NCBI GenBank assembly: GCA_003518365.1
Contig: DOYU01000021.1
Coordinates: forward strand, 492-64,491
Length of the DNA stretch: 64,000 nt
Direction: 5' to 3'
Source of the DNA: Candidatus Magasanikiibacteriota bacterium
GTDB taxonomy: Bacteria; Patescibacteriota; Patescibacteriia; Magasanikbacterales; UBA922
A program made the translations under genes and the position numbers. Shown here piece by piece: positions 20,857-46,894 of the stretch. A model generated the notes under the pieces. The model was given only the letters and a program-made list of their open reading frames with translations, made no database searches and had not been told where the DNA came from. How positions within the stretch are numbered: position 1 is the stretch's first letter; each line of letters begins with the position of its first letter.

Positions 20857-20956
20857 AGCGAGTATGAATAGTATATCACAAAAATTATTCTGCTCACATG
20901 GCGAGTCTTGATTTTTTCGTGTATATTGAGTATTATAGCGAAGCAAAAAAAGATGG

Positions 20957-21013
20957 GCTTGTCCTGCCTTTCGCGAAAGGCGGAGCGCGTCCCTCCCTTC
21001 ACGAAGGGAGGGA
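20957..21013. repeat. Direct repeat A1 with palindrome (GCTTGTCCTGCCTTTCGCGAAAGGCGG) plus hairpin TCCCTCCCTT-CACG-AAGGGAGGGA
   Basis: The core CCTTTCGCGAAAGG is a perfect palindrome. A near-identical copy lies at 21323-21353 on the other side of the GIY-YIG ORF. Confidence 0.6.
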
Positions 21014-21047
21014 TATATCGTATAGTGTGTATCAAACAGGAGGGGCT

Positions 21048-21296
21048 ATGTTCTATACCTACCTATTGCAAAGTACAAAGGACAACAATTTTTATATTGG
21101 ATCAACGACGGATTTAAAAAGAAGATTCACCGAACATAACGATGGGAAAGTTTCTTCAACAAAATTTCGTCGTCCAATGAAATTGGTATATTACGAAGCC
21201 TATCCAGAAGAACATCTGGCACGAGTACGCGAACAAAAATTAAAAGATTTTGGTTCAGCATACACAGCACTATTAAAAAGATTAGGGTATAAATAA
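21048..21296 (+). CDS. GIY-YIG nuclease-domain protein (UPF0213-like, 82 aa)
   Basis: MFYTYLLQSTKDNNFYIGSTTDLKRRFTEHNDGK...TKFRRPMKLVYYEAY. SD AGGAGG upstream. ORF track start at 20898 trimmed. Confidence 0.8.
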   Translation: MFYTYLLQSTKDNNFYIGSTTDLKRRFTEHNDGKVSSTKFRRPMKLVYYEAYPEEHLARVREQKLKDFGSAYTALLKRLGYK

Positions 21297-21410: not shown

Positions 21411-21482
21411 TGGGCGCATCGTATAGTGGTAGTACATTGGTCTCCAAAACCAATTGCGTGGGTTCGATTCCTACTGCGCCTG
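21411..21482 (+). tRNA. trnW: tRNA-Trp (anticodon CCA)
   Basis: Manual cloverleaf: acceptor GGGCGCA/TGCGCCT, anticodon stem TTGGT/ACCAA, loop CTCCAAA, T-loop TTCGATT. No encoded 3' CCA. Confidence 0.8.
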
Positions 21483-21538
21483 CACTGGAAAACATACCAA
21501 AAATAAGGTATGTTTTTATAGATAATAGAATAAACGAT

Positions 21539-22827: not shown

Positions 22828-22916
22828 TTCCAACTTCCTCCTTCCTCTACGATCCCCTGCACCTCCTGCAGTAGCTCCTGCCGGCAGGCAGGTTAGCGAA
22901 GGCACGGCACTTGAAA

Positions 22917-22946
22917 AACAGAGTGAAAAACACTCTGTTTTTCTTT
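22917..22946 (+). terminator. Rho-independent terminator
   Basis: AACAGAGTG-AAAAA-CACTCTGTT perfect 9-bp stem followed by TTTTCTTTTT. Confidence 0.7.
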
Positions 22947-22975
22947 TTGACATGAAGGGAAGAACGGAGTATTGT
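22947..22975 (+). promoter_or_regulatory. promoter candidate for the defence operon (TTGACA-17-TATTGT)
   Basis: -35 at 22947-22952, -10 at 22970-22975, directly after the terminator and 28 nt before the XRE gene ATG. Confidence 0.4.
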
Positions 22976-23002
22976 ACAAGTAAACATATACATTATATTG
23001 GT

Positions 23003-23212
23003 ATGGCTCATCAAAAAAATACAATCGGAAAAAACATCAAACGATTACGGCAAGAACAAAAAATTTCCCAAGATCGTCTTTCAAAACTTGCGGATCTTTC
23101 TTTGAATACTATTGTTACCGTTGAAAGTGGCGCAAACGAAAATCCTACTATTGATACGCTCACAAGGATTGCGAAAGCGTTTCAAGTTGGCGTGGATGAC
23201 CTCATAACATAA
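23003..23212 (+). CDS. XRE-family helix-turn-helix transcriptional regulator (69 aa)
   Basis: MAHQKNTIGKNIKRLRQEQKISQDRLSKLADLSLNTIVTVESGANENPTIDTLTRIAKAF is a classic HTH_3. ORF track start at 22952 trimmed. Its size and position resemble R-M controller (C) proteins. Confidence 0.8.
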   Translation: MAHQKNTIGKNIKRLRQEQKISQDRLSKLADLSLNTIVTVESGANENPTIDTLTRIAKAFQVGVDDLIT

Positions 23213-23220
23213 CACCCACT

Positions 23221-24198
23221 ATGTCTAAACAAACACCTACCAATAATCTCGCTATCTACCAAGCTAAAAACGGCGCGATTGAATTTCGCGGTGATTTTGA
23301 GCAAGAGACGGTTTGGGGAAATTTAAATCAAATTGCCGATCTTTTTGGTCGCGACAAGTCCGTTGTTTCCCGCCATATAAAAAACATCTATAAAACAGGC
23401 GAATTAAACGAAACGGCAACTGTTGCAAAAATTGCAACAGTTCAAAAGGAAGGAAGGAGAGAAGTGATGCGTGAAATTGAGTACTTCAACCTTGATGTTA
23501 TTTTGTCCGTTGGGTACAGAGTAGATTCCAAGCAAGCCACGCAATTCCGCAAATGGTCAACGCAAGCGCTCAAGGCACACCTTGTAGACGGGTATACCAT
23601 CAACAAAAAACGCATCGGTAATAACTACGAACACTTTTTGCGTGCAGTGGCAGAAACAAAAGCACTCCTCCCTGTGGGCAACAAGGTTTCTACCGAGGAT
23701 ATACTTGAACTCGTGAACGCATTTGCTGCTACGTGGTTTTCGCTCGATGCATATGACAAAGACGCATTTCCTCAAAAAACAGCCTCAAAAAAGTCAGTTT
23801 CAGTTGACACTGTAAAGCTACTCAATGCGATTGGTGAGTTGAAGCAAGAACTGATAACCAAAAAGCAAGCAACAAACCTATTTGCACAAGAAAGGAAGAC
23901 GGGAACAGTAGAAGGAATCGTCGGAAATGTATTTCAGTCTGCCTTTGGCAAAGATGTATATCCAAGTATAGAAGAAAAGGCCGCACACATCCTCTACTTC
24001 ATGGTAAAAAATCATCCATTCACCGATGGCAACAAGCGCAGCGGAGCCTTTGCATTTGTTTGGTTTCTACGAAAAGCTGGTTTACTCCGACCAAGTCTTA
24101 CTCCAGAAGCGTTGACTGCCATTACCCTCCTCATTGCAGAGAGTAATCCAAAAGATAAAGACAAAATGGTGGGACTAGTGGTGATGTTAATCAAATAA
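23221..24198 (+). CDS. RhuM-family / Fic-DOC-like protein
   Basis: N-terminal NLAIYQAKNGAIEFRGDFEQETVW...KIATVQKEGRREVMREIEYFNLDVILSVGYRV is the RhuM signature. C-terminal HPFTDGNKRSGAF matches the Fic/Doc motif HxFx(D/E)GNxR. Confidence 0.7.
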   Translation: MSKQTPTNNLAIYQAKNGAIEFRGDFEQETVWGNLNQIADLFGRDKSVVSRHIKNIYKTGELNETATVAKIATVQKEGRREVMREIEYFNLDVILSVGYRVDSKQATQFRKWSTQALKAHLVDGYTINKKRIGNNYEHFLRAVAETKALLPVGNKVSTEDILELVNAFAATWFSLDAYDKDAFPQKTASKKSVSVDTVKLLNAIGELKQELITKKQATNLFAQERKTGTVEGIVGNVFQSAFGKDVYPSIEEKAAHILYFMVKNHPFTDGNKRSGAFAFVWFLRKAGLLRPSLTPEALTAITLLIAESNPKDKDKMVGLVVMLIK

Positions 24199-24200
24199 CT

Positions 24201-25322
24201 ATGGCAAATAAAAACCTTACAAAAGCAAAAAAGGCAAAAAATGATGAATTTTATACTCAATTTTCAGATATTCAAAAAGAAGTTGAGTCTTATCTTGAGT
24301 ATAACCCAGATACTTTTAAAGATAAGATAATTTACAGTAATTGTGACGACCCGTTCGAAAGTAATTTCTTTCGCTATTTTGTATTAAATTTTGATCGTTT
24401 AGGACTAAAGAGACTTATTTCAACGAGCTACAAACCCTCACCTGTTGCCAATACGCAACTGGGATTATTTGGCGATGACAAAACACTTGAAAAAGTAAAA
24501 GGCCGTCCAAAAGTAACCGCTAACAAATTCATCATCAACGAAGTTGGCGATATCGACGGCGACGGCTCTTTTACGCTAGAAGATATTGCCCAACAGCTTC
24601 GAGCGAATAAAAATAACGAATGGACTCCGCTTGAGGGCGATGGTGATTTTAGAAGTGCCGAATGTGTCGAGTTGCTCAAACAATCTGACATCGTAGTTAC
24701 TAATCCTCCATTTAGTTTATTCCGTGAATATATTACGCAACTTTTCGAACACAAAAAGCAATTTCTAATTATTGGTAGCATGAACTCAATTACTTACAAA
24801 GAAATCTTTGTGTTGATTAAAAATAATAAATTGTGGTTAGGTAATGGGTTTAATGCTGGCAATGCATATTTTTCAACTCCCAATGCGCGAAAAGATTTTG
24901 CTTCTGGTGTGTATGATGAAAAAACTGGTCTTGTAAAATTTCGGAATTGTCATTGGTTTACTAATTTAGATCATGGTCGTCGTCATCAGCCTCTTAATCT
25001 GATGACAACAAATGAAAACCTAAGATTTAATAAAAAAATGCAAGGCAAAACTACTTATGATCGTTATGACAATTATGACGCTATTGATGTACCATTTACA
25101 AAAGCTATCCCTTCTGACTACGAAGGAGTAATGGGTGTTCCTATAAGCTTTCTCGATAAGTACAATCCTAATCAGTTTGAGATATTGGGCTCTGACACAG
25201 ACATAAAAGAAGGTAAACTTCCACTTTTAATAATAAGTAAATGGAATGGAAAGCTAGACAGAGGTTATATACATGGAAAGAGAATCTTCAGTAGAATGTT
25301 TATTAAGCACAAAAAGAAATAA
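24201..25322 (+). CDS. N6-adenine DNA methyltransferase, M.EcoRI-like family
   Basis: Collinear with my recollection of M.EcoRI: [17 protein letters not shown]..., [48 protein letters not shown] (NPPF catalytic motif IV), [39 protein letters not shown]. Low GC. Confidence 0.8.
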
Positions 25323-25323
25323 T

Positions 25324-26487
25324 ATGAAAACAACCTTAAAAAATGATATCACCGTTAAAGAAGTTTGCGACGGCTTTGAATACAACGAATTTGAAGGAAA
25401 AGGTTTGTTTGGTCTCTCTGGCAAACTAACTATTCAGCCAGAGTATCAGCGTAATTATATTTATGCTGACGGCAAACGTGACGTTGCTGTAATTGACTCA
25501 ATTTTAAAGGGTTATCCTATCGGTTTGATCTATTTCAATCAGGCTGGTAAAGACGAGTTTGAAGTATTAGATGGTCAACAGCGCATCACGAGTATAGGTC
25601 GTTTTGTTACTGGCAAATTTGCTGTTAAAGATAAAAACGGTCACGAGCAATACTACAGCGGTATGTCTGAGAGTCAGCGTGAGCAAATTATGAAGACTAA
25701 GTTGTTGGTGTATGTGTGCGAAGGTGACGAGCCTGAGATCAAAGATTGGTTCAAGACTATTAACATTGCTGGAGTGCCATTAACTGAACAAGAGATTCTT
25801 AACGCGGTATATTCTGGGCCATTCGTTACTCGAGCTCGTGAAGAGTTTAGTAATAGTCAAAATACCAACATCCAGAAATGGAGTGCGTACATCGCAGGTG
25901 ATATCAAGCGTCAGGCATACTTGGAACGAGCTCTAGATTGGGTTTCTGATGGATCAATCGATAGTTATATGAGCAAACACCGCAATGACAAAAATATTAC
26001 TGAACTAAAAAAACATTTTGATACTATCATTGACTGGGTCTCAACTATCTTTACTGACGTTGAGAGCGATATGAAAGGCCTTGAGTGGAACAGGATTTAT
26101 GAGACATATCACAAGAAGAAATACAATCCGACTACCATCTCTGCTTCTGTTCAGAAGCTCTATGCTGATGGTTTCGTAAAAAGTCGCAAAGGCATTTTTG
26201 AATATGTTTTAGGCGGAGAAGTTGAAACTAAACTACTTGAAATACGAGTATTTGAGGACTCAACAAAACGTTCAGTTTACGAAGCTCAAACTGCTATTGC
26301 AAAGAAAAAAGGTGTTTCAAACTGTCCACATTGTGCTATTGGGCATGATGCCAATAAAGAAAAAATTTGGACTTTAAGCGATATGGATGCTGATCATGTG
26401 GCTGCTTGGAGTAAAGGTGGAAAAACGGAAGCAAAAAACTGTGAGATGTTGTGTAAAACGCATAATCGTGCCAAAGGTAATCGGTAA
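25324..26487 (+). CDS. DUF262 (ParB-like) plus C-terminal HNH nuclease, GmrSD-like
   Basis: [13 protein letters not shown] (DGQQR motif of DUF262). C-terminal CPHCAIGHD...[32 protein letters not shown] is an HNH motif. Its ATG lies 1 nt after the methyltransferase stop. Confidence 0.75.
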
Positions 26488-26493
26488 AATATT

Positions 26494-27987
26494 ATGCACC
26501 TCACAAAAACCGACTATCTCGAATATACCTTTTGCAAAAAGAACCTTTGGCTCAAAAAACATAAGCCAGAGCTTTTTGAAGATGTAGAATTGTCGGAATT
26601 TGAAAAAAAAATTATTGAGGAAGGGAATTTGGCTGATGAGGCTGCAAGAAATTTATTTCCTGATGGAGAATTGATCGGTATCGTCGGAGTAAATGCTATA
26701 CCTGTTACAAAAAAGATACTGGAGAAAAACCCACCAGTATTATTTCAAGGTGCATTTTCATTCAATGACTTTTTTGTTCAAGCGGATATTTTACGTTACA
26801 ACGACATTTTAAAGGGTTGGGAACTTTACGAAGTAAAAGCAACAAATGATGTAAAACGAGAAATCCCTCATCACCATATCAACGACCTTGCGTTTCAAAA
26901 AATTGTAATTGAACAAAATGGGATACACATTATAAAAGCAGGCGTTATTCACCTTAACGGCGAATATAGACAACGAGGCAAAGTAAACTATAACGAACTG
27001 TTCATCATTGCCGAGCTTACTGATGAAGTACTAGAAGCGGAAGAACTTGTACGTGGGCAGATGCGTGATATTCACACATATATGGACATGGCAGAAGAAA
27101 AAAATTGTGAATGTTTGTATCGAGGTAGAAATGCACAATGTACAACGTTCGCTTACTCTAATCCTGAAGTGCCTGAATACTCTGTTCACGATATCAATAG
27201 AATTGGCGGAAGCAAAAAACTGTTTTTTGACTGGATAGATAGAGGGATCTACCGGCTCGAAGATATAGATAACCCAGAAAATCTTACAGGATCAAAAAAG
27301 GCACAATATACTGCGTACATAACAGGTAAGCCTCTCATAGACAAAGAAGCAATACAAAAAGAACTTGGTGAATTGGTTTTTCCTCTCCAATTTTTTGATT
27401 ACGAAGGATATTCTAGTGCTATCCCCAGCTTTAACGGCTTCGGTGCGTATGAACAAGTGCCTTTTCAATATTCACTACATACGCTCCATGAAGACGGAAC
27501 GCTTGAACACCGAGAATATCTCATCACAGAGCCAGAGAATGATTTGACTTTGCCATTGGTAGAAAGAATGAAAGAAGACTTTGATGATGTTGGTACTGTC
27601 ATATCTTGGTACAAATCATACGAATCACAACGAAACGACAAACTAGCAGAACTTCATCCAAATCATGCAGACTTTCTTATTGGCCTCAATGACAGAATGT
27701 TTGACCTCATGACAATGTTTTCCAAAAATTATTATGTGGATGCACGGTTCAAAGGGAGTGCAAGCATAAAAAATGTTCTGCCGGTCATTGTACCGGAATT
27801 AACGTACAAAGTACTTGGTATTCAAAAAGGAGATCAAGCAGTAGAACGTTGGGAAAAAATGATATTTGCAGATATTCATCCAGATGAAAAGAAAGAAATA
27901 AAAAAAGATTTGCTTGAGTATTGCAAATTGGATACTTTGGCGATGGTGAGGATTTGGGAGTTTCTAATGAAAATAAAAAATGTATGA
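26494..27987 (+). CDS. DUF2779-family protein (PD-(D/E)xK RecB/Cas4-like N-terminal nuclease-like domain)
   Basis: N-terminal LTKTDYLEYTFCKKNLWLKKHKPEL and central FDYEGYSSAIPSFNGFGAYEQVPFQYSLH match DUF2779 hallmarks from memory. D...QADIL...YEVKAT is a D/ExK-like motif. Its stop overlaps the SIR2 start (ATGA). Confidence 0.6.
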   Translation: MHLTKTDYLEYTFCKKNLWLKKHKPELFEDVELSEFEKKIIEEGNLADEAARNLFPDGELIGIVGVNAIPVTKKILEKNPPVLFQGAFSFNDFFVQADILRYNDILKGWELYEVKATNDVKREIPHHHINDLAFQKIVIEQNGIHIIKAGVIHLNGEYRQRGKVNYNELFIIAELTDEVLEAEELVRGQMRDIHTYMDMAEEKNCECLYRGRNAQCTTFAYSNPEVPEYSVHDINRIGGSKKLFFDWIDRGIYRLEDIDNPENLTGSKKAQYTAYITGKPLIDKEAIQKELGELVFPLQFFDYEGYSSAIPSFNGFGAYEQVPFQYSLHTLHEDGTLEHREYLITEPENDLTLPLVERMKEDFDDVGTVISWYKSYESQRNDKLAELHPNHADFLIGLNDRMFDLMTMFSKNYYVDARFKGSASIKNVLPVIVPELTYKVLGIQKGDQAVERWEKMIFADIHPDEKKEIKKDLLEYCKLDTLAMVRIWEFLMKIKNV

Positions 27988-29219
27988 ATATGCACAGCCC
28001 TCTTTCTTCAATTCAACAACTACAATCAATATTAAGTAGTCCTTCGAAAAAAATCGGATTCCTTTTTGGGGCTGGAATTTCAATGGAAAAAAAAGATAAG
28101 AGTGATTTGGTGGTAGGAACTGATGACAAAAAAGATGAGAACGGTAATGTAATAAAAGAAGGAATGACAAGTCTCGCAATTAAAAATTTATCAGAGGAAC
28201 AAAAAAAAGCTGTAGATTTAATAAAGAATGAGGTTGAAACAGAAAATAAAAAATTTAACATCGAAAGTCTCTTATCAAAAATTTCTGAAAAAGAAAGAGC
28301 TGTTGGCGATCAAGAGCTTTGTGGTTTAACAAAAGAAAAATTATTAAATTTGAGAAAGGATATACAGGATAAAATAAGAGATTTGGTTTCCGTACATAGG
28401 GTGGATGATAAAGAAATTGATATTGAGGCATTAAATCACAGCACATTTGCTCAATGGATTAGTAATGCTGATAGAGAATTCTCAGTAGAAATTTTTACAA
28501 CAAATTACGATTATCTACTAGAACTAGCACTTGAAAAACAAGGAATTCCCTATTTCGATGGTTTTGTGGGTAGTTATGAAGCATTTTTTTGCCCTGAATG
28601 GATTGAAGATGACACGCCTGTCAAAAATTGGGTAAAGCTATGGAAATTACATGGTTCACTTGGTTGGGCACAGAATAGTAAAAAAGAAATAATTAGAACA
28701 TCTGGTAATACCGGTGCGGCGATGATATACCCTTCATTTTTGAAATATGACCATTCCAAAAAACAGCCATACTTGAGCTATATGGATAGATTGTCCGATT
28801 TTTTAAAGCAAGAAGATTCTGTCTTATTTGTTTGTGGTTATTCATTTGGAGATGAACATATAAATGAAATAATTTTGACAGCACTTACGCACTCTCGCTC
28901 ATCACATGTATTTGTGTTGAAAAATGGAGAAATGGAAAAATCTAGCCATCTTTCAAAAGAAATTGCACAAAAAAATTCTAGAATTTCAGTTTATGCAAAA
29001 CGTACCTGTATTATTGGAGGTAAATTTGGAGAATGGAAGCTCGATAGAGAACCAGACAGAAATGAATCCTACAACATATTAGATTATGCTTTTGATGAAG
29101 ACGCTACACCTGATGGAGTACCATGGACAGGAAGAGGTGATTTTCGTCTTGGAGACTTTAAAAAATTTACGGAGTTTTTAGAGCTTTTCTACCATAATTC
29201 GAGATATATCAATAAATGA
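27984..29219 (+). CDS. SIR2-like (SIR2_2 family) NAD+-binding defence protein
   Basis: GFLFGAGIS, FTTNYDYLLE and KLHGSLGW motifs. ORF track start at 27921 trimmed to the ATG at 27984, which overlaps the DUF2779 stop. Confidence 0.8.
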   Translation: MNMHSPLSSIQQLQSILSSPSKKIGFLFGAGISMEKKDKSDLVVGTDDKKDENGNVIKEGMTSLAIKNLSEEQKKAVDLIKNEVETENKKFNIESLLSKISEKERAVGDQELCGLTKEKLLNLRKDIQDKIRDLVSVHRVDDKEIDIEALNHSTFAQWISNADREFSVEIFTTNYDYLLELALEKQGIPYFDGFVGSYEAFFCPEWIEDDTPVKNWVKLWKLHGSLGWAQNSKKEIIRTSGNTGAAMIYPSFLKYDHSKKQPYLSYMDRLSDFLKQEDSVLFVCGYSFGDEHINEIILTALTHSRSSHVFVLKNGEMEKSSHLSKEIAQKNSRISVYAKRTCIIGGKFGEWKLDREPDRNESYNILDYAFDEDATPDGVPWTGRGDFRLGDFKKFTEFLELFYHNSRYINK

Positions 29220-29220
29220 C

Positions 29221-30999
29221 ATGAGAAATAAAGAGACATTTATAGGTAAAGTGAGAAGTGTCACAGGTAGTACGCTTGCTATTGAGTTACACGAAGATAT
29301 TAGATCAACGTTACCTATTATTGATGGGATATTATATAGAATTGGACAAATTGGTTCTTTTATAAGAATTCCTTTTGGTTATGTTGATTTATATGGAGTA
29401 ATTACACAAGCTGGATCAGACGCTATACCAGAAAAATTAGCGGAGCAAGAGGGTTTGAAAGGATCTCGCTGGATTAAGGCTACTCTTATTGGAGAAAGGG
29501 TCGGTAATAGATTTGAAAGAGGGGTGTTGCAATTTCCTATTGCTGATGACGAAGTTCATTTGGTCACGAAGGATGATTTGGAATTGATATATGGTGGAAT
29601 TGATGAATCAAAGTCAATAGTAGTTGGACAGGTCAGTGCCTCTGAAAATCTGTCAGCAAGAATAGATATAGACAGATTAATTAATAGACATTGCGCCATA
29701 CTTGGCTCTACAGGAAGTGGAAAATCAAATACAGTTTCTGTAATACTAGAAGCAATTGCTTCTAGACATCATGATGATGAAAATATAAAAAGTACGAGAA
29801 TTCTTTTGGTCGACCCTCATGGTGAGTATGGCGATATTTTAAAAAATTATAGTCAAATATTTAAGTTAGGAGCAGACTTGTCAAAAGGAGAAAAAGAACT
29901 AGTTGTTCCATATTGGGCTTTACCTTTTCAAGAATTTATAAAAAGTTTTCCAGGTAATCTAACTGAAAAGCAGGAAGAGTACATACGTGAAGAAATTCTA
30001 CAAAGAAAGATTAAGGCTTCTAAAAAATTAAATCCTATTCCACAAGAGGAGGCAATTACAGCTGATAGCCCTATCCCTTTCAGTATTAAACAACTATGGT
30101 TTGACCTTATTGATATAGAGCAAAAAACTTTTAATAACAAGGAGTTAACCGAAGTCGCACTCGAATCACTAGGCGATCCTGAGGCACTTAAGCCTAACAA
30201 ATACTCCATAGCGTCAACAAATAATACAGCCCCTTTCAGTAATAACAGGGTTGCGCAGGGTATTTCAAGTTTTTTAAACTTAATGCGGAATAGAATTTTA
30301 GATCAAAGATTTAAGTTTTTATTCAAACTAGACACGCTCTCTCCTGGTATTGACGGAACTATTTCAAGTGATTTAGACAGTCTCATTGAAAGTTGGATTG
30401 GGACAGAGAAACCAATAACTATTTTAGACCTATCGAGTATACCCTCTGAAATCATGGGTTCAATTTCTGGTTCTTTGCTTTCAATAATTTATGAATTTCT
30501 ATATTGGGGACAGAATGAAGATGTGGGAGGTCGCCAAACACCTATTCTGTTTGTACTAGAAGAGGCACATAATTATCTAAAGTCAGGCGAGAATTCTATT
30601 GCCTCAAGAACTGTACAAAAAATTGCAAAAGAGGGTAGAAAATATGGTTCAGGTTTACTACTCGTAACCCAACGACCTTCTGAACTGGATGATACTGTTT
30701 TGAGTCAATGTGGTTCAGTTATCGCGTTGAGAATGACAAATTCTAGCGATAGAGGCCACGTAAAGAGTGCTGTCGAGGATTCCCTAAACGAGTTAGTTGA
30801 TTTGCTTCCGAGCCTAAGAACAGGTGAAGGTTTAATTATGGGTGAATGTGTAAAATTACCTATGCGAACTAAATTTTCTAAAACTAGGGAATCTAAAAGT
30901 ACAGACCCACTTGTTTCTAAGCAGTGGAAAACAACTCTTCCAGAATCCTCTAACTATAATAAAGTTTTAGAAAATTGGAGAAATAATAAATTTTCTTAA
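29221..30999 (+). CDS. HerA-like (DUF87/FtsK-HerA) ATPase; partner of SIR2 (SIR2-HerA/Nezha-type defence)
   Basis: Walker A AILGSTGSGKSN, Walker B ILFVLEEAHNY, N-terminal HAS-barrel-like region. The ATG at 29221 is 1 nt after the SIR2 stop. Confidence 0.8.
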   Translation: MRNKETFIGKVRSVTGSTLAIELHEDIRSTLPIIDGILYRIGQIGSFIRIPFGYVDLYGVITQAGSDAIPEKLAEQEGLKGSRWIKATLIGERVGNRFERGVLQFPIADDEVHLVTKDDLELIYGGIDESKSIVVGQVSASENLSARIDIDRLINRHCAILGSTGSGKSNTVSVILEAIASRHHDDENIKSTRILLVDPHGEYGDILKNYSQIFKLGADLSKGEKELVVPYWALPFQEFIKSFPGNLTEKQEEYIREEILQRKIKASKKLNPIPQEEAITADSPIPFSIKQLWFDLIDIEQKTFNNKELTEVALESLGDPEALKPNKYSIASTNNTAPFSNNRVAQGISSFLNLMRNRILDQRFKFLFKLDTLSPGIDGTISSDLDSLIESWIGTEKPITILDLSSIPSEIMGSISGSLLSIIYEFLYWGQNEDVGGRQTPILFVLEEAHNYLKSGENSIASRTVQKIAKEGRKYGSGLLLVTQRPSELDDTVLSQCGSVIALRMTNSSDRGHVKSAVEDSLNELVDLLPSLRTGEGLIMGECVKLPMRTKFSKTRESKSTDPLVSKQWKTTLPESSNYNKVLENWRNNKFS

Positions 31000-31010
31000 T
31001 TATTAAACAT

Positions 31011-31223
31011 ATGGAAAGAAAACCAGTACAATCATCAAATCTTGCTGCTATTGGATATGATCCTTTGACAGAAACTTTGGAGGTGGAATTCACAGATGGG
31101 TCTGTCTATGAGTATAAGAACGTCTCTCAATTTATATACGATGAGCTGATGAATGCTTCGTCTCATGGTTCTTATTTTAATAGAGAAATCAGTAAAAGTT
31201 TTCCGTATGAGAAAATAGGTTAA
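31011..31223 (+). CDS. KTSC-domain protein (70 aa)
   Basis: SSNLAAIGYDPLTETLEVEFTDGSVYEYKNVSQFIYDELMNASSHGSYFNREI is the canonical KTSC domain. Confidence 0.75.
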   Translation: MERKPVQSSNLAAIGYDPLTETLEVEFTDGSVYEYKNVSQFIYDELMNASSHGSYFNREISKSFPYEKIG

Positions 31224-31401: not shown

Positions 31402-33249
31402 ATGAAACATTCAACATTCCACTATCATCTATCACGTATGACCCTCCTCTTTCTCATACTGATCCCCATCCTCATCATTATTGTGGGGATGTATGTTTTC
31501 TTTTGGAAAAACGCTGTACCAACAGGAGAACAATTTGTGACCGTATGCTCGGATGAAGATGTGTCGTGCCACCCGACGAATCTCCCGTATCAAGATGCAA
31601 CACTTCCGACTCAGGAACGAGTTGTTGATTTGCTCGGCAGGATGACTCTGGCAGAAAAAATAGGACAAATGGCACTTGTTGAAAAAAATAGTATTAAAAA
31701 CAACAATGACATTGCAACGTATGGACTTGGTGCCATTATGAGTGGTGGTGGAGGAAAACCCACTGACAATAGTCCTACAGGTTGGAAAGACATGATACAG
31801 TCATTTCAAACAAAGAGCCAAACAACACGTCTTCAAATTCCCCTCTTGTATGGCGTGGATGCAAATCATGGACATGGCAATGTACCAGGAGCAACAATTT
31901 TTCCACACGCTATCGGACTTGGCGCGACAAACAACGCGGAACTCGTAAAAAATATTGCAAAAGCAACCGCACAAGAAGCAGAAGCGACTGGCGTTAATTG
32001 GATATTTTCTCCAAATCTTGACGTGACAAACGATGTCAGATGGGGACGAACGTATGAGACGTTTGGTTCAAACACAGAAACCATCGCTAAACTTGGACAA
32101 GCATCTATAGAAGGTATGAACACGGTGCCGACGATGCTTGCGGGCGCAAAACACTTTATCGGGAATGGTGCGACCGAGTGGGGATCATCTGAAAACAAAA
32201 ATTTTTTTATCGACCAAGGCAATGCTTCTGTATCTGAAGAAGAATTGCGAAAGACGCATCTGATACCCTTTATCTCCGCCATTGATGCTGGAGCCAAATC
32301 AATTATGATTGGTCTCAATCAATGGAACAATGAAAAAATTATATTTCACACATATCTTATACAGGATGTATTAAAAGGTAAGCTTGGATTTGACGGATTT
32401 GTCTTCTCAGACTGGTATGGCGTATACGAGGGGGAATCAAATAAATCAACAGCACTCATCAGTGCCATCAATGCTGGCGTAGATATGGTGATGCTTCCCT
32501 ATGATTACACACAATTCTCTCGTATCATGCACCGCGCCGTACAAAATGGCGATATTTCAGAAGCACGGATTGATGATGCTGTGACGAGAATTCTCACGGT
32601 AAAATTTGATAAAGGACTTTTTGATACAACACCAACAAACGTCTCAGACCTCGACATCGTCGGATCAAAAGAACACAAAGATCTTGCACGAATTGCAGTA
32701 CAACAATCTCTGGTGTTGTTAAAAAATAAGAACGTCCTTCCCCTCTCTAAAAAAGTGAATTCCATATTTATAGCAGGATCGAGCGCAGATAATATTGGAA
32801 GACAATCTGGTGGGTGGACAGTAGAGTGGTCTGGTATTGATGGAAATTGGATCCCCGGAACGACGATATTGGAAGGAATAAAAAACACCGTATCCCCTAC
32901 CACGAATATTCAATATGACATGCAGGGATCATTTCCAACACAAACAGAAAAAGCAGATGTTGGTATTGCGATTGTAGGAGAAATGCCGTATGCAGAAGGC
33001 TGGGGAGACAATGCACACCCATCACTTTCTGAAGAAGATATCAATACTATTGAAGCATTGAAAGCACAGAGTAAAAAAATTGTAGTGATTATTGTTTCTG
33101 GTCGTCCGCTTGATATTGCCCCATATATTGACGAGTGGGATGCCGTTGTGGCCGTATGGCTTCCTGGTTCTGAAGGAATGGGAATTGCAGATGTTCTGTT
33201 TGGAGATGTTTCATTCACAGGGAAACTTCCTATTGAGTGGACATGGTAA
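31402..33249 (+). CDS. glycoside hydrolase family 3 (beta-glucosidase / beta-hexosaminidase-like) with N-terminal TM anchor
   Basis: GH3 N-domain motifs GVDANHGHGN and GFDGFVFSDWYGV (nucleophile Asp), C-domain GKLPIEW. TM MTLLFLILIPILIIIVGMYVFFW. Confidence 0.8.
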   Translation: MKHSTFHYHLSRMTLLFLILIPILIIIVGMYVFFWKNAVPTGEQFVTVCSDEDVSCHPTNLPYQDATLPTQERVVDLLGRMTLAEKIGQMALVEKNSIKNNNDIATYGLGAIMSGGGGKPTDNSPTGWKDMIQSFQTKSQTTRLQIPLLYGVDANHGHGNVPGATIFPHAIGLGATNNAELVKNIAKATAQEAEATGVNWIFSPNLDVTNDVRWGRTYETFGSNTETIAKLGQASIEGMNTVPTMLAGAKHFIGNGATEWGSSENKNFFIDQGNASVSEEELRKTHLIPFISAIDAGAKSIMIGLNQWNNEKIIFHTYLIQDVLKGKLGFDGFVFSDWYGVYEGESNKSTALISAINAGVDMVMLPYDYTQFSRIMHRAVQNGDISEARIDDAVTRILTVKFDKGLFDTTPTNVSDLDIVGSKEHKDLARIAVQQSLVLLKNKNVLPLSKKVNSIFIAGSSADNIGRQSGGWTVEWSGIDGNWIPGTTILEGIKNTVSPTTNIQYDMQGSFPTQTEKADVGIAIVGEMPYAEGWGDNAHPSLSEEDINTIEALKAQSKKIVVIIVSGRPLDIAPYIDEWDAVVAVWLPGSEGMGIADVLFGDVSFTGKLPIEWTW

Positions 33250-42471: not shown

Positions 42472-43065
42472 ATGAACAAACATATTCTCGTTTCATTGTC
42501 TTTTTTATCAGTAGCTCTGGTAATTTCTGGTTGTGGAAATAACACAACTACACCCAATGCTTCTGATACAGGTACAGAGCCAGGTCAAGAACGATTTGGG
42601 AATAATCCAAATGCTCCACAAACTCAGGCTGATATTGTGGGTATTGTGAAATCTATGGTTGGGAATGAAGTGACCATTACTCAAATCGATATGGACAAAA
42701 TGCGTGAGGCAATGGCTGCCAGTAGGCCAGATAGCCAACCTGCAACGGGTGAGGAAGGAAGGAGTAATAATTTTGTCGCAGGAACAGGACCAGGTATGGG
42801 ACCGGGGGGCGGTATGGGTCCTGGTGGTGGTATGGGACCAGATGGTGCCAATATTGATAGTGAAGAAAGAAATCAAGCACTCTCTGACATGATGAAAGAA
42901 TATAGTGCAGGAGACGTAAAAGTAATACTTCCTGTAGGGATTGCGATGAACCGTCGTGGGGAAACAGCAAGTTTAGCTGATGTTGCTGTTGGTGCCAATC
43001 TTTCTATTTGGTTAAATACGTCAGTCAGTGACAAAAAAGTAGCTGAGTATGTAAGTATTAGATAA
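42472..43065 (+). CDS. lipoprotein with a Gly/Met/Pro repeat
   Basis: Signal plus lipobox LVISGC. The (GMGPGG)x3 repeat is PGMGPGGGMGPGGGMGPDG. Confidence 0.6.
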   Translation: MNKHILVSLSFLSVALVISGCGNNTTTPNASDTGTEPGQERFGNNPNAPQTQADIVGIVKSMVGNEVTITQIDMDKMREAMAASRPDSQPATGEEGRSNNFVAGTGPGMGPGGGMGPGGGMGPDGANIDSEERNQALSDMMKEYSAGDVKVILPVGIAMNRRGETASLADVAVGANLSIWLNTSVSDKKVAEYVSIR

Positions 43066-43066
43066 T

Positions 43067-44905
43067 ATGTCTCAAGAAGAATCAATCATTGCTCAAAGCA
43101 AAAAATTTCGTCGTGGAGGATACATACCAAAACTTTTGAAAAATAAAAAAGTACTGATGATAGTGCTTGTTTTGGTAATGACTCTTTCAGGCGGATATTA
43201 TGTGTATTCAAAAATCGCAAAGAACAATGATACCGCTGTTGCTACGAAAAAAACATATACCGTAAAAAAAGGTGATATTCGTATTTCTACCAATGCTGAC
43301 GGCAGTATTGTTGCCAAAGATGGTGTGAGTTTGTCTTTTTCGAGTACAGGTGTCACGATAAAAAATGTATATGTAAAAGAAGGCGATATCGTCAAAAAAG
43401 GTGACAACATTGCAACAGCCGATACAGGTACCCAAAGCATTGATTTGCAATCAGCGTATGCTTCGTATACGTCTGCGAAAGCAAGTTATGAAGAAAAAAT
43501 TGCAGGACCTACAGAAAATGATTTGGCTTCCTACAAAAATTCTGTTGAAAGTGCTCAAGCAAGTCTTGATAAGACGTTGAAACAAAATGAATATGCAATA
43601 CAGAGTGCGGAAAGTTCTCTAGAAACAGCTCTTGCTAATTTGAAATTGTCAGAAGGTGGTGAACAGAGTCAGATAGTACAAGATGCGTACAACGATATAT
43701 ATCTGGATTCACTCAGTGCGGTGACGAATCTGAATGCAGCGCTTACTGCCTCAGATAATATTCTTGGTATTGACAACATATTTGCCAATGATGTTTTTGA
43801 AAATGTATTATCAGTCTTAGATAGTGCGAGCATTTCTCAGGCAAGAAATTCTTATCTTGTTGCAAAACATACGTTGACAACTGCAGAAAATGCCGTTGTG
43901 GTATTGAATGCTTCTTCTCCTCAAGGAGATATGTTGGCGAGTGCCCAATTAGTTCTAGTAGCTATTACCCAAATGCATCAGCATTATTATGATATGCAAG
44001 AAATGCTTGTAGCAACGCTACCCATTGGTGATCTGTCACAAAGCTCCTTAGAGAGTATGCGAAGCAGTGTGAATAGCAAAAAATCATCCATGGTTTCTTT
44101 GCTCAGTTCTTTCAATGCTTCTCTGAAAGCCATAGATACAGCAACATCAAGTTATGATTCATATAAAAGAGCATATGAAAATGCTCTCCAAGCATTGGAA
44201 AAAGCAAAGAGTGATGCTGAGTCTTCTGAAATAAGTGCCAGATTGAGTCTACAAAATGCAGAACAACAGTTGAAAGAGGCATCGGCTCCTTTGACAGAGT
44301 CTGAGCGTAGTTCCGCCAAGAGTAGTCTTGCAAATGCAAGTGCAAGTGTACAAAAACTTCAATATCAAATAGATCAATCTACGCTCAAATCCCCGATTGA
44401 TGGTGAAGTGGTATTGTTGAATGGGAAAACAGGAGACATCATCGTGGATGAAAAAAATTCTCCTTTTGTAACAATTTTGAATAAAGAAACATTTTTTGTT
44501 GAGACAAATATAGAGGAATCTGAAATAAGTAACATCCAAGTTGGTCAAAAAGCTCACATCATTGTTGATGCACTCGATGAAGCAACGCTTGAGGGTACGG
44601 TCAATTTTATTTCCCTTACTTCTGAAAGTGGTACTGGTGGTGTTGTGACGTACCTTGTGCGTGTGTTGCTAGATGATACAGAGTATGTTGATGTGAGAGA
44701 AGGAATGACGGCAGGTGTGGACTTCGTGATTGCGGAATCAAATGATGTCCTGATGGTGCCAGTGCAAGCAGTACAAAATGTAAATGGCAAACCTGCAGTA
44801 ACCATGAACAATGGAGATACCAGAGACGTTGTCACTGGTTTTACAGATGGACAAACAGTGGAGATTATTTCTGGATTAGAAGTTGGAGAACAAGTAACCT
44901 ATTAA
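43067..44905 (+). CDS. HlyD-family periplasmic adaptor (MacA-like) with an extended coiled coil
   Basis: N-terminal TM, biotinyl-lipoyl-like YTVKKGDIRISTNADGSIVAKDG...VKEGDIVKKGDNIAT, long alpha-helical hairpin, beta-barrel LKSPIDGEVVLLNGKTGDIIV. Confidence 0.7.
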   Translation: MSQEESIIAQSKKFRRGGYIPKLLKNKKVLMIVLVLVMTLSGGYYVYSKIAKNNDTAVATKKTYTVKKGDIRISTNADGSIVAKDGVSLSFSSTGVTIKNVYVKEGDIVKKGDNIATADTGTQSIDLQSAYASYTSAKASYEEKIAGPTENDLASYKNSVESAQASLDKTLKQNEYAIQSAESSLETALANLKLSEGGEQSQIVQDAYNDIYLDSLSAVTNLNAALTASDNILGIDNIFANDVFENVLSVLDSASISQARNSYLVAKHTLTTAENAVVVLNASSPQGDMLASAQLVLVAITQMHQHYYDMQEMLVATLPIGDLSQSSLESMRSSVNSKKSSMVSLLSSFNASLKAIDTATSSYDSYKRAYENALQALEKAKSDAESSEISARLSLQNAEQQLKEASAPLTESERSSAKSSLANASASVQKLQYQIDQSTLKSPIDGEVVLLNGKTGDIIVDEKNSPFVTILNKETFFVETNIEESEISNIQVGQKAHIIVDALDEATLEGTVNFISLTSESGTGGVVTYLVRVLLDDTEYVDVREGMTAGVDFVIAESNDVLMVPVQAVQNVNGKPAVTMNNGDTRDVVTGFTDGQTVEIISGLEVGEQVTY

Positions 44906-44916
44906 GACTGAATGGT

Positions 44917-45627
44917 ATGAGTGAAGAAGTTGTCATACAATTGAAAGATGTCCACAAATCTTATTATTTAGGCAATGGCGAAGAAGTACAGGTCTTAAAA
45001 GGGGTTGATGTAGAAATAAAAAAGGGAGAATTTGTCGCACTCATGGGAGAGTCTGGTGGTGGAAAAACCACGTTACTCAATATTCTAGGATGCCTCCATC
45101 CCCTCTCTTCTGGTACATATTTACTCGAAGGAGAAAATATTGGAGATGTCCGTGATGATGGAACGCTCGCGTTTATCCGTAACAAAAAAATGGGCTTTGT
45201 GTTTCAACAATTCAATTTGTTGTCACGTCTCAGTGCTCTCAAAAATGTGGCATTGCCAAGTCTGTATGCAGGAGTCGACAAAGAAACGAGAAACACAAAA
45301 GCAAAAGAACTGTTAAAACTTTTATCAATGGAAGAAAGAACAGAACACAAACCAACAGAGCTTTCGGGTGGTCAACAACAACGTGTCGCCATAGCACGCG
45401 CGCTGATGAACGACCCTGAAATAATTTTGGCAGATGAACCGACAGGTGCTCTTGATTCAAAAAATGGTTTGGAGATTATGGAAATTTTCAAAAATTTCAA
45501 AAACCAACAAAAGACGGTCGTGATGGTAACGCATACCGCAGAAGTTGCAAAATACGCTGACAGAATTATCTATATGCGTGATGGTAAAATTTTGGATACT
45601 CATTATCAGTTGAAGAGTGAGTACTAA
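44917..45627 (+). CDS. ABC transporter ATP-binding protein (MacB/LolD-type)
   Basis: GESGGGKTTLLNILG (Walker A), [15 protein letters not shown] (signature), ILADEPTGALD (Walker B). Confidence 0.9.
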   Translation: MSEEVVIQLKDVHKSYYLGNGEEVQVLKGVDVEIKKGEFVALMGESGGGKTTLLNILGCLHPLSSGTYLLEGENIGDVRDDGTLAFIRNKKMGFVFQQFNLLSRLSALKNVALPSLYAGVDKETRNTKAKELLKLLSMEERTEHKPTELSGGQQQRVAIARALMNDPEIILADEPTGALDSKNGLEIMEIFKNFKNQQKTVVMVTHTAEVAKYADRIIYMRDGKILDTHYQLKSEY

Positions 45628-45685
45628 TTTTTTGTGAATATACTAGGTAAAAAATTAGAGTTTACGAGGATCATTTGTTGAACGT

Positions 45686-46894
45686 ATGTTTTTAGAAATA
45701 TTAAAAATGGCAGGTGAAGCACTTTGGTCCAATAAGATCCGAAGTTTTTTGTCAGTGCTTGGTATTATTATTGGGGTGTCTACGGTTATCGTAGTAGTAG
45801 GCATTGGGACTGGAGCAAAAAAACAAATAGAAGAACAATACAAAAATCTGAGTGCGACGACCATCATGGTCATGAAACAGATGGGACGAGATGCTGTTTC
45901 TTCTTCAAAACTGGAAGCAGAAGATGCCACTGTTATTTCTCAAAATATTGAACATATAAAGAGTACCACCGTTTTTATTTCGGGCAACTCAACGGTTGCG
46001 TATGGACAAGAATCTGGTTCAGTAAATACATTTGGTATCTATGATACTTTTTTTGATATAGGTAATTTAGAGCTAGAAGCTGGGAGACTTCTCACTCAAG
46101 AAGATGTGAGTAATAAATCAAAAGTCATTGTCATTGGTTCAGGTGCGTTGACGACACTTTTTGGTGAGGAGGCTGAGACTACTCAAGCGGTCGGTCAATT
46201 TATTACTGTTTCTAATAAAAAAATGGAAATAGTCGGCATCCTCAAAGAAAATGGAGGAAGTGTGATGGGGAGAATGTCTTATGATGATGCGGTGTTTGTC
46301 CCATATACGACGGCTGAAAGTATGTTGGGAAATCAAGCCAACATGATGATTGTGGTACTTATGGATGATGTGGACAATTTGCAAACAGGCATGGATGATA
46401 TTACCACTATCTTGCGAATTCAGCATAAACTCAAAGCAAGTCAGGCTGATGATTTTCGTATTTTTGATCCTGGTTCTATTGTCGGCGCTGCCCAAAGTTC
46501 TGCAGATACCATGTCATTACTGTTGGTATCGATCGCAACGATTGTGCTTATTGTATCTGGCGTCGGTATTATGAATGTCATGTTTGTGACGGTGGCAGAA
46601 AGAACAAAAGAAATTGGTATTGCAAAAGCAATTGGGGCACAAAAACAAGATATCTTGACTCAATTTTTGGCTGAATCAGTGATTTTATCAATTGGGGGAG
46701 GAATGGTAGGAGCATTACTTGGTCAAATCATCATTCCCATTTTGAATACATTTGAAGGTTGGTATGTTGTTCCATCTGTTTCTGGAGTGATATTGTCTTT
46801 TACGTTCTCAGCTATTGTAGGTTTATTTTTTGGATTTTATCCAGCACTCAAAGCAAGCAAACTCGATCCTGTAGATGCGTTGAGGAGTGAATAG
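45686..46894 (+). CDS. ABC transporter permease, FtsX/MacB-type
   Basis: N-terminal TM, large periplasmic MacB_PCD-like domain, and a C-terminal 3-TM FtsX domain (TKEIGIAKAIGAQKQDIL). Confidence 0.8.
   Translation: MFLEILKMAGEALWSNKIRSFLSVLGIIIGVSTVIVVVGIGTGAKKQIEEQYKNLSATTIMVMKQMGRDAVSSSKLEAEDATVISQNIEHIKSTTVFISGNSTVAYGQESGSVNTFGIYDTFFDIGNLELEAGRLLTQEDVSNKSKVIVIGSGALTTLFGEEAETTQAVGQFITVSNKKMEIVGILKENGGSVMGRMSYDDAVFVPYTTAESMLGNQANMMIVVLMDDVDNLQTGMDDITTILRIQHKLKASQADDFRIFDPGSIVGAAQSSADTMSLLLVSIATIVLIVSGVGIMNVMFVTVAERTKEIGIAKAIGAQKQDILTQFLAESVILSIGGGMVGALLGQIIIPILNTFEGWYVVPSVSGVILSFTFSAIVGLFFGFYPALKASKLDPVDALRSE

Follow-up and report, generated by a model that had tools for sequence, protein, structure and literature searches.

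An EcoRI-family adenine methyltransferase and a DUF262-HNH nuclease form an unconventional restriction-modification-like pair in a Magasanikiibacteriota genome

A stretch of 64,000 nucleotides from a Candidatus Magasanikiibacteriota bacterium (assembly GCA_003518365.1, contig DOYU01000021.1, positions 492 to 64,491 of the forward strand), hereafter the window, encodes at positions 24201-26487 an adenine methyltransferase of the EcoRI family, termed M, followed by a nuclease that contains a DUF262 domain and an HNH domain, termed R. Comparison of the sequences supports the conclusion that the two genes are a real, co-transcribed, translationally coupled and unconventional restriction-modification-like (R-M-like) unit. 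This pair is very probably a genuine R-M system, with M as the protection from R. What the comparison favours is an unconventional mechanism directed by the methylase, in which M would not only protect, but would also supply the specificity to a generic nucleoside triphosphate (NTP)-dependent R, a logic like that of Type III and Type IIG systems with different parts; we judge the chances of this mechanism to be evenly balanced. The pair is widespread, is catalogued as a putative Type II system and is uncharacterized as far as we have found, because no description or characterization of it was found in the literature searched.

The methyltransferase, the nuclease and their junction

The two genes and the elements within them are as follows.
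24201-25322, + strand: EcoRI-family N6-adenine DNA methyltransferase (M), 373 amino acid residues (aa), PF13651
24450-24470, + strand: NTQLGLF segment of M (aa 84-90) with the conserved QLxLF motif, invariant or nearly invariant in 51 methyltransferases
24702-24713, + strand: catalytic motif IV of M, NPPF (aa 168-171), invariant in the alignments
24843-24953, + strand: hypervariable module of M (VR; aa 215-251), a putative target-recognition element, between W212-L-G and W252-F-T-N
25324-26487, + strand: DUF262 (ParB/Srx-like NTPase)-helical-HNH nuclease (R), 387 aa, PF03235 and PF01844
25429-25812, + strand: DUF262/GmrSD_N domain of R (aa 36-163), PF03235 with E = 1e-22, QPEYQR at aa 38-43
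25570-25584, + strand: DGQQR motif (aa 83-87) within the DUF262 domain of R
26323-26484, + strand: Cys4 zinc-ribbon HNH domain of R (aa 334-387), CPHC...DH...N-C...C..HN

An earlier reading, made from the sequence only, had called M an M.EcoRI-like methyltransferase, and the profile search and alignment bear this out. M matches PF13651 (EcoRI_methylase) over its full length with E = 3e-127 and 425 bits (cut-off, 26.4), residues 5-371 covering positions 1-345 of the 345 of the profile, and it matches the PADLOC MTase_II model PDLC03297 with E = 2.8e-106. It is collinear with the authentic M.EcoRI of the E. coli plasmid pU90-3, to which it is approximately 41% identical by tblastn and 49% identical in a multiple alignment. 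The motifs common to both enzymes are intact and include DEFYTQ (aa 15-20), NCDDP (aa 47-51), a further stretch of 20 residues, NSITYKE, YDNYDAI and GVMGVPI; a shared stretch of 37 residues is also seen in the alignment with the pU90-3 protein. NPPF and the N-terminal DEFYTQ and CDDP motifs are invariant across 51 homologues of M. The sequence of M gives no match in the PDB, and when its AlphaFold2 (AF2) model is compared with the PDB by Foldseek, only generic Rossmann methyltransferases are retrieved, with no complex of a DNA methyltransferase, and the variable module is not placed.

The methyltransferases partnered with R differ from M.EcoRI by an extra conserved insert that contains QLxLF. 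This segment is present in all of the eight DUF262-partnered methyltransferases aligned, and has no counterpart in M.EcoRI, in the homologues from Klebsiella and Campylobacter, or in the fused protein P0391 described below. In M, it lies within a region (aa 80-104) that is predicted to be disordered (pLDDT of approximately 40 in the AF2 model). The QLxLF segment is a candidate partner-docking peptide, its correlation with the partner being imperfect in that a Lactiplantibacillus plantarum methyltransferase without a DUF262-HNH partner also contains it. Two EcoRI-family methylases are themselves fused to other domains and are followed by a small uncharacterized gene in place of the DUF262-HNH gene: the fusion partner is a C5 cytosine methylase in L. 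plantarum p9 (locus L096, 2180-4282) and a RelB/DinJ-like N-terminus in Psychrobacter pA3H10 (locus L097, 1997-3244).

R consists of an N-terminal DUF262 domain, which is a ParB/Srx-like NTPase domain with DGQQR, a helical middle region and a C-terminal nuclease domain of the His-Me superfamily. In this arrangement, it resembles the Type IV enzymes GmrSD and BrxU. However, its C-terminal domain is a classical zinc-ribbon HNH domain (PF01844 match at aa 344-387, E = 2e-5) and gives no match to DUF1524, the domain with the (D/E)HxxP motif that GmrSD, SspE and BrxU carry, and its size is approximately 390 aa, as compared with approximately 550-600 aa for GmrSD and BrxU. Thus, the Type IV architecture assigned to R in the sequence-only reading holds for the DUF262 domain and its DGQQR motif, but not for the nuclease domain. 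The residues of QPEYQR and DGQQR, C334, C337, D357-H358, N372, C373, C377 and H380-N381 are invariant in 49 homologues of R, and this invariance of the putative NTP pocket and the HNH residues is as expected of purifying selection.

The AF2 model of R (pLDDT 76) gives BrxU as its best, though weak, Foldseek match in the PDB (E = 2e-3, TM score 0.23), followed by ParB, Noc and Srx, and these matches cover the N-terminal domain only; a search of the PDB with the sequence of R gives no match. R matches the PADLOC REase_II model PDLC03418 from end to end with E = 1.5e-88, and its family thus has an entry there as a putative Type II restriction enzyme. NCBIfam has no model for either M or R. The label of R in the Prokaryotic Genome Annotation Pipeline (PGAP) is 'DUF262 domain-containing protein', and its homologues are named either in this way or as 'HNH endonuclease family protein' in their sources, with one named 'McrA'.

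The TAA stop codon of M ends at 25322 and the ATG start codon of R is located at 25324, so that the genes are separated by 1 nt. The gene next to M therefore lies where the sequence-only reading had placed it and has the domains that were read there, a DUF262 domain with DGQQR and a C-terminal HNH domain; it does not encode an EcoRI-type endonuclease. The gene order, M to R, is also the reverse of that of the EcoRI system, R to M. An upstream in-frame ATG at 25273 was considered as the start codon of R and rejected: all of the 120 R homologues listed are approximately 387 aa long and align from MKTTLK, and the gene call of the source assembly also starts at 25324.

Linkage, mobility and spread of the pair

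In a search of genomes, one for each species, 188 relatives of R were retrieved, and linkage was counted at the best 80 loci. A PF13651 methyltransferase gene is located 5' of the R gene on the same strand at 77 of these loci, and the contigs of the remaining three, which extend for less than 1.5 kb upstream, are too short to be informative. The M-to-R linkage is obligate in this subfamily, and the pairing is not a chance neighbourhood. The distance from the stop codon of M to the start codon of R is between -98 and +11 nt, mostly -4, +1 or +2, at 51 of the 75 loci at which it can be measured. At the other 24, M and R are separated by 0.6-3.1 kb of same-strand cargo, which encodes RhuM, DUF2130, T5orf172, Bro-N, AbiU2-like HEPN, Fic and AntA proteins, AAA_15/21 ATPases, AIPR and a Dam-like methylase. 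With defence-type cargo at 24 of 75 related loci, the M-R junction is a hot spot at which 'embedded' genes are inserted. A third conserved gene was sought upstream and downstream of the pair at the 80 loci and was not found, the neighbours being heterogeneous.

Nucleotide identity between loci climbs at the start codon of M and collapses at the stop codon of R. Because the homology between loci spans the region from the one to the other, M and R together are the mobile unit. The pair is found on plasmids of 9-11 kb in Pediococcus, Moraxella and Lactiplantibacillus, on megaplasmids of Enterococcus faecium, on many actinobacterial plasmids and in the Flavobacterium phage laban6-1. A methyltransferase is also listed for 44 of the 45 plasmid records with a nearly full-length R, and the single exception has a frameshifted methyltransferase pseudogene directly 5' of R. 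Conversely, approximately 15 of the top 60 plasmid matches of the methyltransferase are without R, including those of true EcoRI plasmids and of a Klebsiella relative with the order R to M. Approximately three quarters of the plasmid-borne EcoRI-family methyltransferases listed are paired with a DUF262-HNH protein, and the EcoRI arrangement appears to be a minority within its methylase family.

The pairing is kept down to approximately 37-40% identity of R, whereas DUF262 relatives at approximately 25% identity to R have no methyltransferase. The R family comprises 449 clusters at 50% identity (E <= 1e-30), with more than 8000 matches in a set clustered at 90%, and ranges over Patescibacteria, Bacillota, Actinomycetota, Bacteroidota, Pseudomonadota, plasmids and phages. 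Most of the listed matches that bear a source name are from Patescibacteria.

These results make it highly improbable that R is an independent, GmrSD- or BrxU-like Type IV enzyme that targets modified phage DNA, for example DNA with hydroxymethylcytosine, and that M is a mere frequent neighbour with a different specificity. The DUF262 domain with DGQQR, the weak structural match to BrxU and the one homologue named 'McrA' would agree with such an enzyme. However, GmrSD and BrxU are solitary enzymes that depend on modification, whereas R is linked to a methyltransferase at all of the 77 informative loci, is translationally coupled to it and moves with it as a unit; no solitary R is seen in the subfamily, solitary DUF262 proteins being found at approximately 25% identity. 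The PF01844 nuclease domain in place of DUF1524 and the existence of fusions with the methyltransferase also argue against it.

Exchange of the hypervariable module and targeting of the nuclease

Specificity was analysed with an alignment of 71 M/R pairs. VR is of at least 14 unrelated types among the 71 methyltransferases, with an identity of 0.85 for modules of one type and 0.15 for those of different types, and that of M in the window is of type 1. Outside VR, the methyltransferases are 0.69-0.82 identical, except in a second hypervariable region, the C-terminal tail (aa 331-373; 0.20). R contains no hypervariable module, its least conserved block of 10 residues still being 0.63 conserved. 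Nearly identical R proteins are accompanied by different VR types (97.2% identity for L017/L024, 96.6% for L017/L022 and 92.8% for the window and L001), and each of the two main clades of R is associated with eight to nine VR types. When the 278 variable columns of R were compared with VR type by within-clade permutation, none was found to track the type (maximum z = 3.6, mean z = 0.15). Co-variation with R is seen for the 5' half of M (Spearman coefficient 0.48-0.53), but not for VR and the 3' part of M (0.02-0.10), although these are physically located between this half and R. In the comparison of the window with L011, the nucleotide identity is 94-98% for the 3' half of M, but approximately 80% for the 5' half of M and for R, a pattern in which a recent cassette exchange is visible. 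R probably borrows its target specificity from M, because M swaps its DNA-reading cassette while R is almost unchanged.

The position of VR agrees with a role in recognition. VR of type 3, which is not the type of the window, closely resembles the matching stretch of M.EcoRI (approximately 72% identity, as compared with 45-49% for the whole proteins). VR is bounded by residues that correspond to W183 and C223/W225 of M.EcoRI (mature numbering, confirmed on the sequence), which, according to work of the Reich laboratory, are located at the cofactor and the flipped-base pocket. In the AF2 model, VR is a beta-hairpin-rich insert of low confidence. The assignment of VR as the specificity determinant is thus well motivated, but not proven. 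A tandem twin methylase of the EcoRI family, P0419 (632 aa; L100, 5001-6899, and L101, 1138-3036), contains two different VR modules and is encoded in phage-like contigs with no adjoining nuclease; its two-module layout would suit an asymmetric site.

It is unlikely in view of this exchange that the pair is a classical (IIP-like) Type II system, in which R would be an independent sequence-specific enzyme with a single family-wide specificity and VR a tolerated surface loop. Classical Type II systems also keep adjoining genes for a methyltransferase and an endonuclease as a pair. A composition of two genes, sometimes joined by a controller-like helix-turn-helix (HTH) gene but by no other conserved component, the carriage on plasmids like that of other Type II addiction modules and the PADLOC labels 'REase_II' and 'MTase_II' for R and M would all fit such a system. 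However, the swapping of 14 discrete VR types as cassettes is typical of recognition domains and not of neutral loops, one of these types is selectively conserved with M.EcoRI, and no determinant in R changes with VR type, as judged by an indirect, comparative test. In addition, the ParB-like domain for NTP binding is invariant in R, although a Mg-only Type IIP enzyme has no need of one, and the invariance of QPEYQR and DGQQR would argue against cleavage that requires Mg2+ only and no NTP. R has apparently been missed by classical enzyme screens, its PGAP name being generic and an NCBIfam model absent, and M-R fusions exist. One of the two alternatives in the sequence-only reading, that the pair is a new Type II-like system that restricts unmodified DNA, is upheld in part. 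The linkage, the coupling, the carriage on plasmids and a phage and the mobility as a unit fit restriction of unmodified DNA with M protecting, but the family is not new to PADLOC, and the fusions and the lack of a co-varying determinant in R are not the behaviour of a classical Type II system.

Three independent single-chain M-R fusions were found. P0391 (717 aa; L099, 5001-7154) is encoded downstream of an HTH gene by an open reading frame (ORF) that is continuous under translation table 11; in it, an intact methyltransferase collinear with M of the window (36% identity, E = 2e-63) precedes a complete R (39% identity, E = 2e-92). P0392 (L102, 3690-5297) has the same arrangement and is encoded in a Mycoplasma-like contig. 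In P0297 (L098, 6001-8067), an intact R is fused to a dead methyltransferase-like domain, in which NPPF is replaced by FPSF, CDDP is replaced by AGDG and DEFYTQ is also lost; no methylase gene adjoins it, and seven conserved Trp positions are encoded by TGA, which its host reads as Trp. The existence of these fusions, together with the absence from R of a determinant that co-varies with VR, indicates methylase-directed targeting. The gene for P0391 lies within a Ter-type cluster (PRTase_2/TRSP, StiP, ATPgrasp_Ter).

Two loci have retained an intact R ORF beside a broken M gene. In the Microbacterium plasmid B (L090, 2938-4688), IS256 truncates M to its C-terminal 188 aa, and in a Chryseobacterium plasmid (L091, 2607-4595), M contains a frameshift and stop codons. 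These loci, anecdotal in being two, would be easier to tolerate if R needs M.

The fusions and the broken loci also bear on the possibility that the pair resembles a toxin-antitoxin system, in which M neutralizes R, a non-specific DNase toxin, by binding to it directly, and methylation serves another end, such as shielding the mobile element from host R-M systems. The tight coupling of the genes, their carriage on small plasmids and a phage, and the disordered QLxLF segment of the R-partnered methyltransferases, with the exception given above, are what such a system might have. It is nevertheless very unlikely: the catalytic motifs are strictly conserved in the partnered methyltransferases, the diversification of VR would be pointless for an antitoxin, loci with a broken M and an intact R exist, and a toxin fused to an antitoxin with a dead methyltransferase domain, as in P0297, is hard to explain.

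Another explanation, which we also consider unlikely, is that R reads N6-methyladenine (m6A) regardless of its sequence context and makes no contact with M. R would scan DNA by means of an NTP-driven ParB-like switch that is turned off at any m6A, or would be licensed by the self mark as SspE is. The independence of R from the type of the methyltransferase module agrees with this explanation, and a DUF262-type nuclease with an NTPase switch has a precedent in SspE, the restriction partner of a phosphorothioate modification module (PMC10952713, PMC12707154). The DUF262 domain of Dazbog has likewise been proposed to sense methylated DNA. The SspABCD-SspE system is similar to the pair in that a DUF262-type NTPase/nuclease is the restriction arm of a modification module. 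It differs in that its mark is phosphorothioation and not N6-adenine methylation by a single enzyme, and in that the nuclease domain of SspE is DUF1524 and that of R is HNH; no ssp or dnd phosphorothioation genes were found in the low-GC island of the window that contains the pair or in the surroundings of the pair at the 80 loci. A context-independent reader would not explain why the partners are exclusively PF13651 enzymes, since any m6A methylase should do, nor the co-variation of R with the 5' half of M. It would also not explain the fusions, one of them with a catalytically dead methyltransferase-like domain, and would gain little from the extensive diversification of VR.

In the methylase-directed mechanism that we propose instead, M would methylate adenine at N6 in a short site read by the swappable VR module, so that host DNA is marked as self and protected. 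R would be a restriction subunit without sequence specificity of its own. At sites that are recognized by M but unmethylated, it would join M, probably in a complex. Binding or hydrolysis of NTP by the ParB/Srx-like domain of R would be the switch, and the DNA would be cut by the HNH domain.

The components of this mechanism have counterparts in known systems. In Type III systems, a methylase has an exchangeable recognition module, and the restriction subunit depends on the methylase. The pair resembles Type III Mod/Res (for example, EcoP15I) in its methylase-then-nuclease order, its exchangeable methylase module and its conserved subunit with NTPase and nuclease domains. It would also share the dependence of R on M, with which the variable M and constant R, the cassette exchange and the fusions are consistent. 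It differs from Type III in containing no superfamily 2 (SF2) helicase/ResIII and no PD-(D/E)XK nuclease domain, the Pfam domains of R being GmrSD_N and HNH, and in that M belongs to PF13651 and not to the Type III Mod family. The rare homologues P0391 and P0392 are similar to Type IIG/IIC enzymes such as MmeI, in which a single chain has one recognition element for both activities. However, the system of the window and nearly all of its relatives consist of two genes, the ORFs of the window being split by TAA and 1 nt, and Type IIG/IIC enzymes have gamma-class N6_Mtase/Eco57I and PD-(D/E)XK domains, as opposed to PF13651 and HNH with a ParB-like NTPase. A tentative extension, for which we put the chances somewhat below even, is that the pair represents a distinct and widespread class of R-M systems, in which a cassette-swappable EcoRI-family M marks self and guides a generic ParB-fold NTPase/HNH R to unmethylated sites, and a nucleotide switch replaces the helicase motor of Types I and III.

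Several points weigh against the methylase-directed mechanism. The 80 loci are those of the closest relatives, mostly metagenome-assembled genomes of Patescibacteria, and are not independent samples. The fusions are rare, amounting to three clusters among thousands, and the two loci with a broken M could represent lost expression, a methylase that acts in trans or sequencing errors. Both the physical contact between M and R and the role of VR in specificity are inferred from comparison; there is no solved structure for this methyltransferase family, and the AF2 model is weak exactly at VR. When avoidance of palindromes of four and six nucleotides was analysed against a Markov expectation in host DNA grouped by methyltransferase module type (0.1-0.3 Mb per type), no type-specific depletion was detected: the observed/expected ratio of GAATTC is 0.86 for the EcoRI-like VR type and the same for the other types, the power of this comparison being low. 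The PADLOC label is that of a Type II, and not of a Type III-like, system. No biochemistry for any member of the family was found in the literature searched.

Genomic setting and implications

The pair is located in a low-GC island of the window (approximately 21.4-31.4 kb; GC content of 0.34-0.39, as compared with 0.43-0.47 in the flanks), on the + strand of which eight genes follow one another at intervals of no more than 12 nt. The other features of this region are as follows.
20898-21296: small GIY-YIG gene, just upstream of tRNA-Trp
21412-21483: tRNA-Trp, at the left edge of the island
22913-22943, + strand: terminator-like hairpin, described as strong (pattern match only)
22947-22975, + strand: promoter-like TTGACA-17-TATTGT, 5' of the HTH gene (pattern match only)
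22952-23212, + strand: XRE-family HTH protein, HTH_3 with E = 2.6e-11, PADLOC 'Control_protein' models with E = 1.4e-8
23221-24198, + strand: protein with a RhuM N-terminal domain (PF13310, E = 6e-23) and a Fic/DOC domain (PF02661, E = 1.6e-12)
26494-27987, + strand: DUF2779 protein with a weak Cas4-like N-terminus, directly 3' of R
27990-29219, + strand: SIR2_2 protein, a defence pair with HerA
29221-30999, + strand: HerA protein, a defence pair with SIR2_2
31011-31223, + strand: KTSC gene, the last of the eight packed genes

An identical sequence is present in the NCBI assembly GCA_003488405.1, with concordant gene calls. Neither a repeat of the 3' end of tRNA-Trp nor an integrase gene was found at the boundaries of the island. 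The region 22913-22975 is a possible start of a long + strand operon that would hold the pair. Downstream of 22943, the next terminator-like site on the + strand is located at 31467, if weak stems of 5-6 bp are disregarded; promoter-like sites are not enriched relative to shuffled sequence.

The XRE-family HTH protein is a candidate controller (C) protein, and its true start codon may be an internal ATG at 23003. A homologous gene is located directly 5' of the methyltransferase gene at nine of the 80 related loci, as well as at the locus of P0391, and is optional and outside the conserved M-R core. The RhuM-Fic protein, which matches PADLOC PDC-S23 with E = 7e-112, is embedded cargo and not a core component; RhuM-like genes are located beside or within the M-R unit at 15 of the 80 loci.

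The sequence-only reading had left room for M being an orphan methylase, or one that shields DNA from a neighbouring defence system. SIR2-HerA and DUF2779 are the neighbours in question, and M as a shield against them is rejected on the basis of co-occurrence: each accompanies the pair at two of the 80 loci only, with otherwise heterogeneous flanks, and both are therefore regarded as neighbours and not partners. In a sister assembly (L088), the DUF2779 and SIR2 genes are called as a single gene of 880 aa, which suggests either a fusion or a frameshift difference. A second low-GC stretch of the window (42472-46894) encodes a HlyD/ABC/FtsX (MacAB-like) efflux operon and is unrelated to the pair.

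If R takes its specificity from M, the pair would represent a new solution to the discrimination of self from non-self, in which a ParB-fold NTP switch is tied to a methylase and not to a reader of modified bases. The pair also shows that a DUF262 nuclease need not be a modification-dependent Type IV enzyme. The large R family is still annotated only as 'DUF262 domain-containing protein'. Classical enzyme screens would have been blind to R, the cleavage requiring both M and NTP. The pair may also be programmable, in that a swap of a cassette of approximately 40 aa could retarget methylation and cleavage together. R would be the predominant partner of methylases of the EcoRI family, in which the textbook EcoRI arrangement appears to be the exception. 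The M-R pair would be especially common in Patescibacteria, and because these bacteria of the candidate phyla radiation largely lack CRISPR, the M-R system may be one of their major defences.

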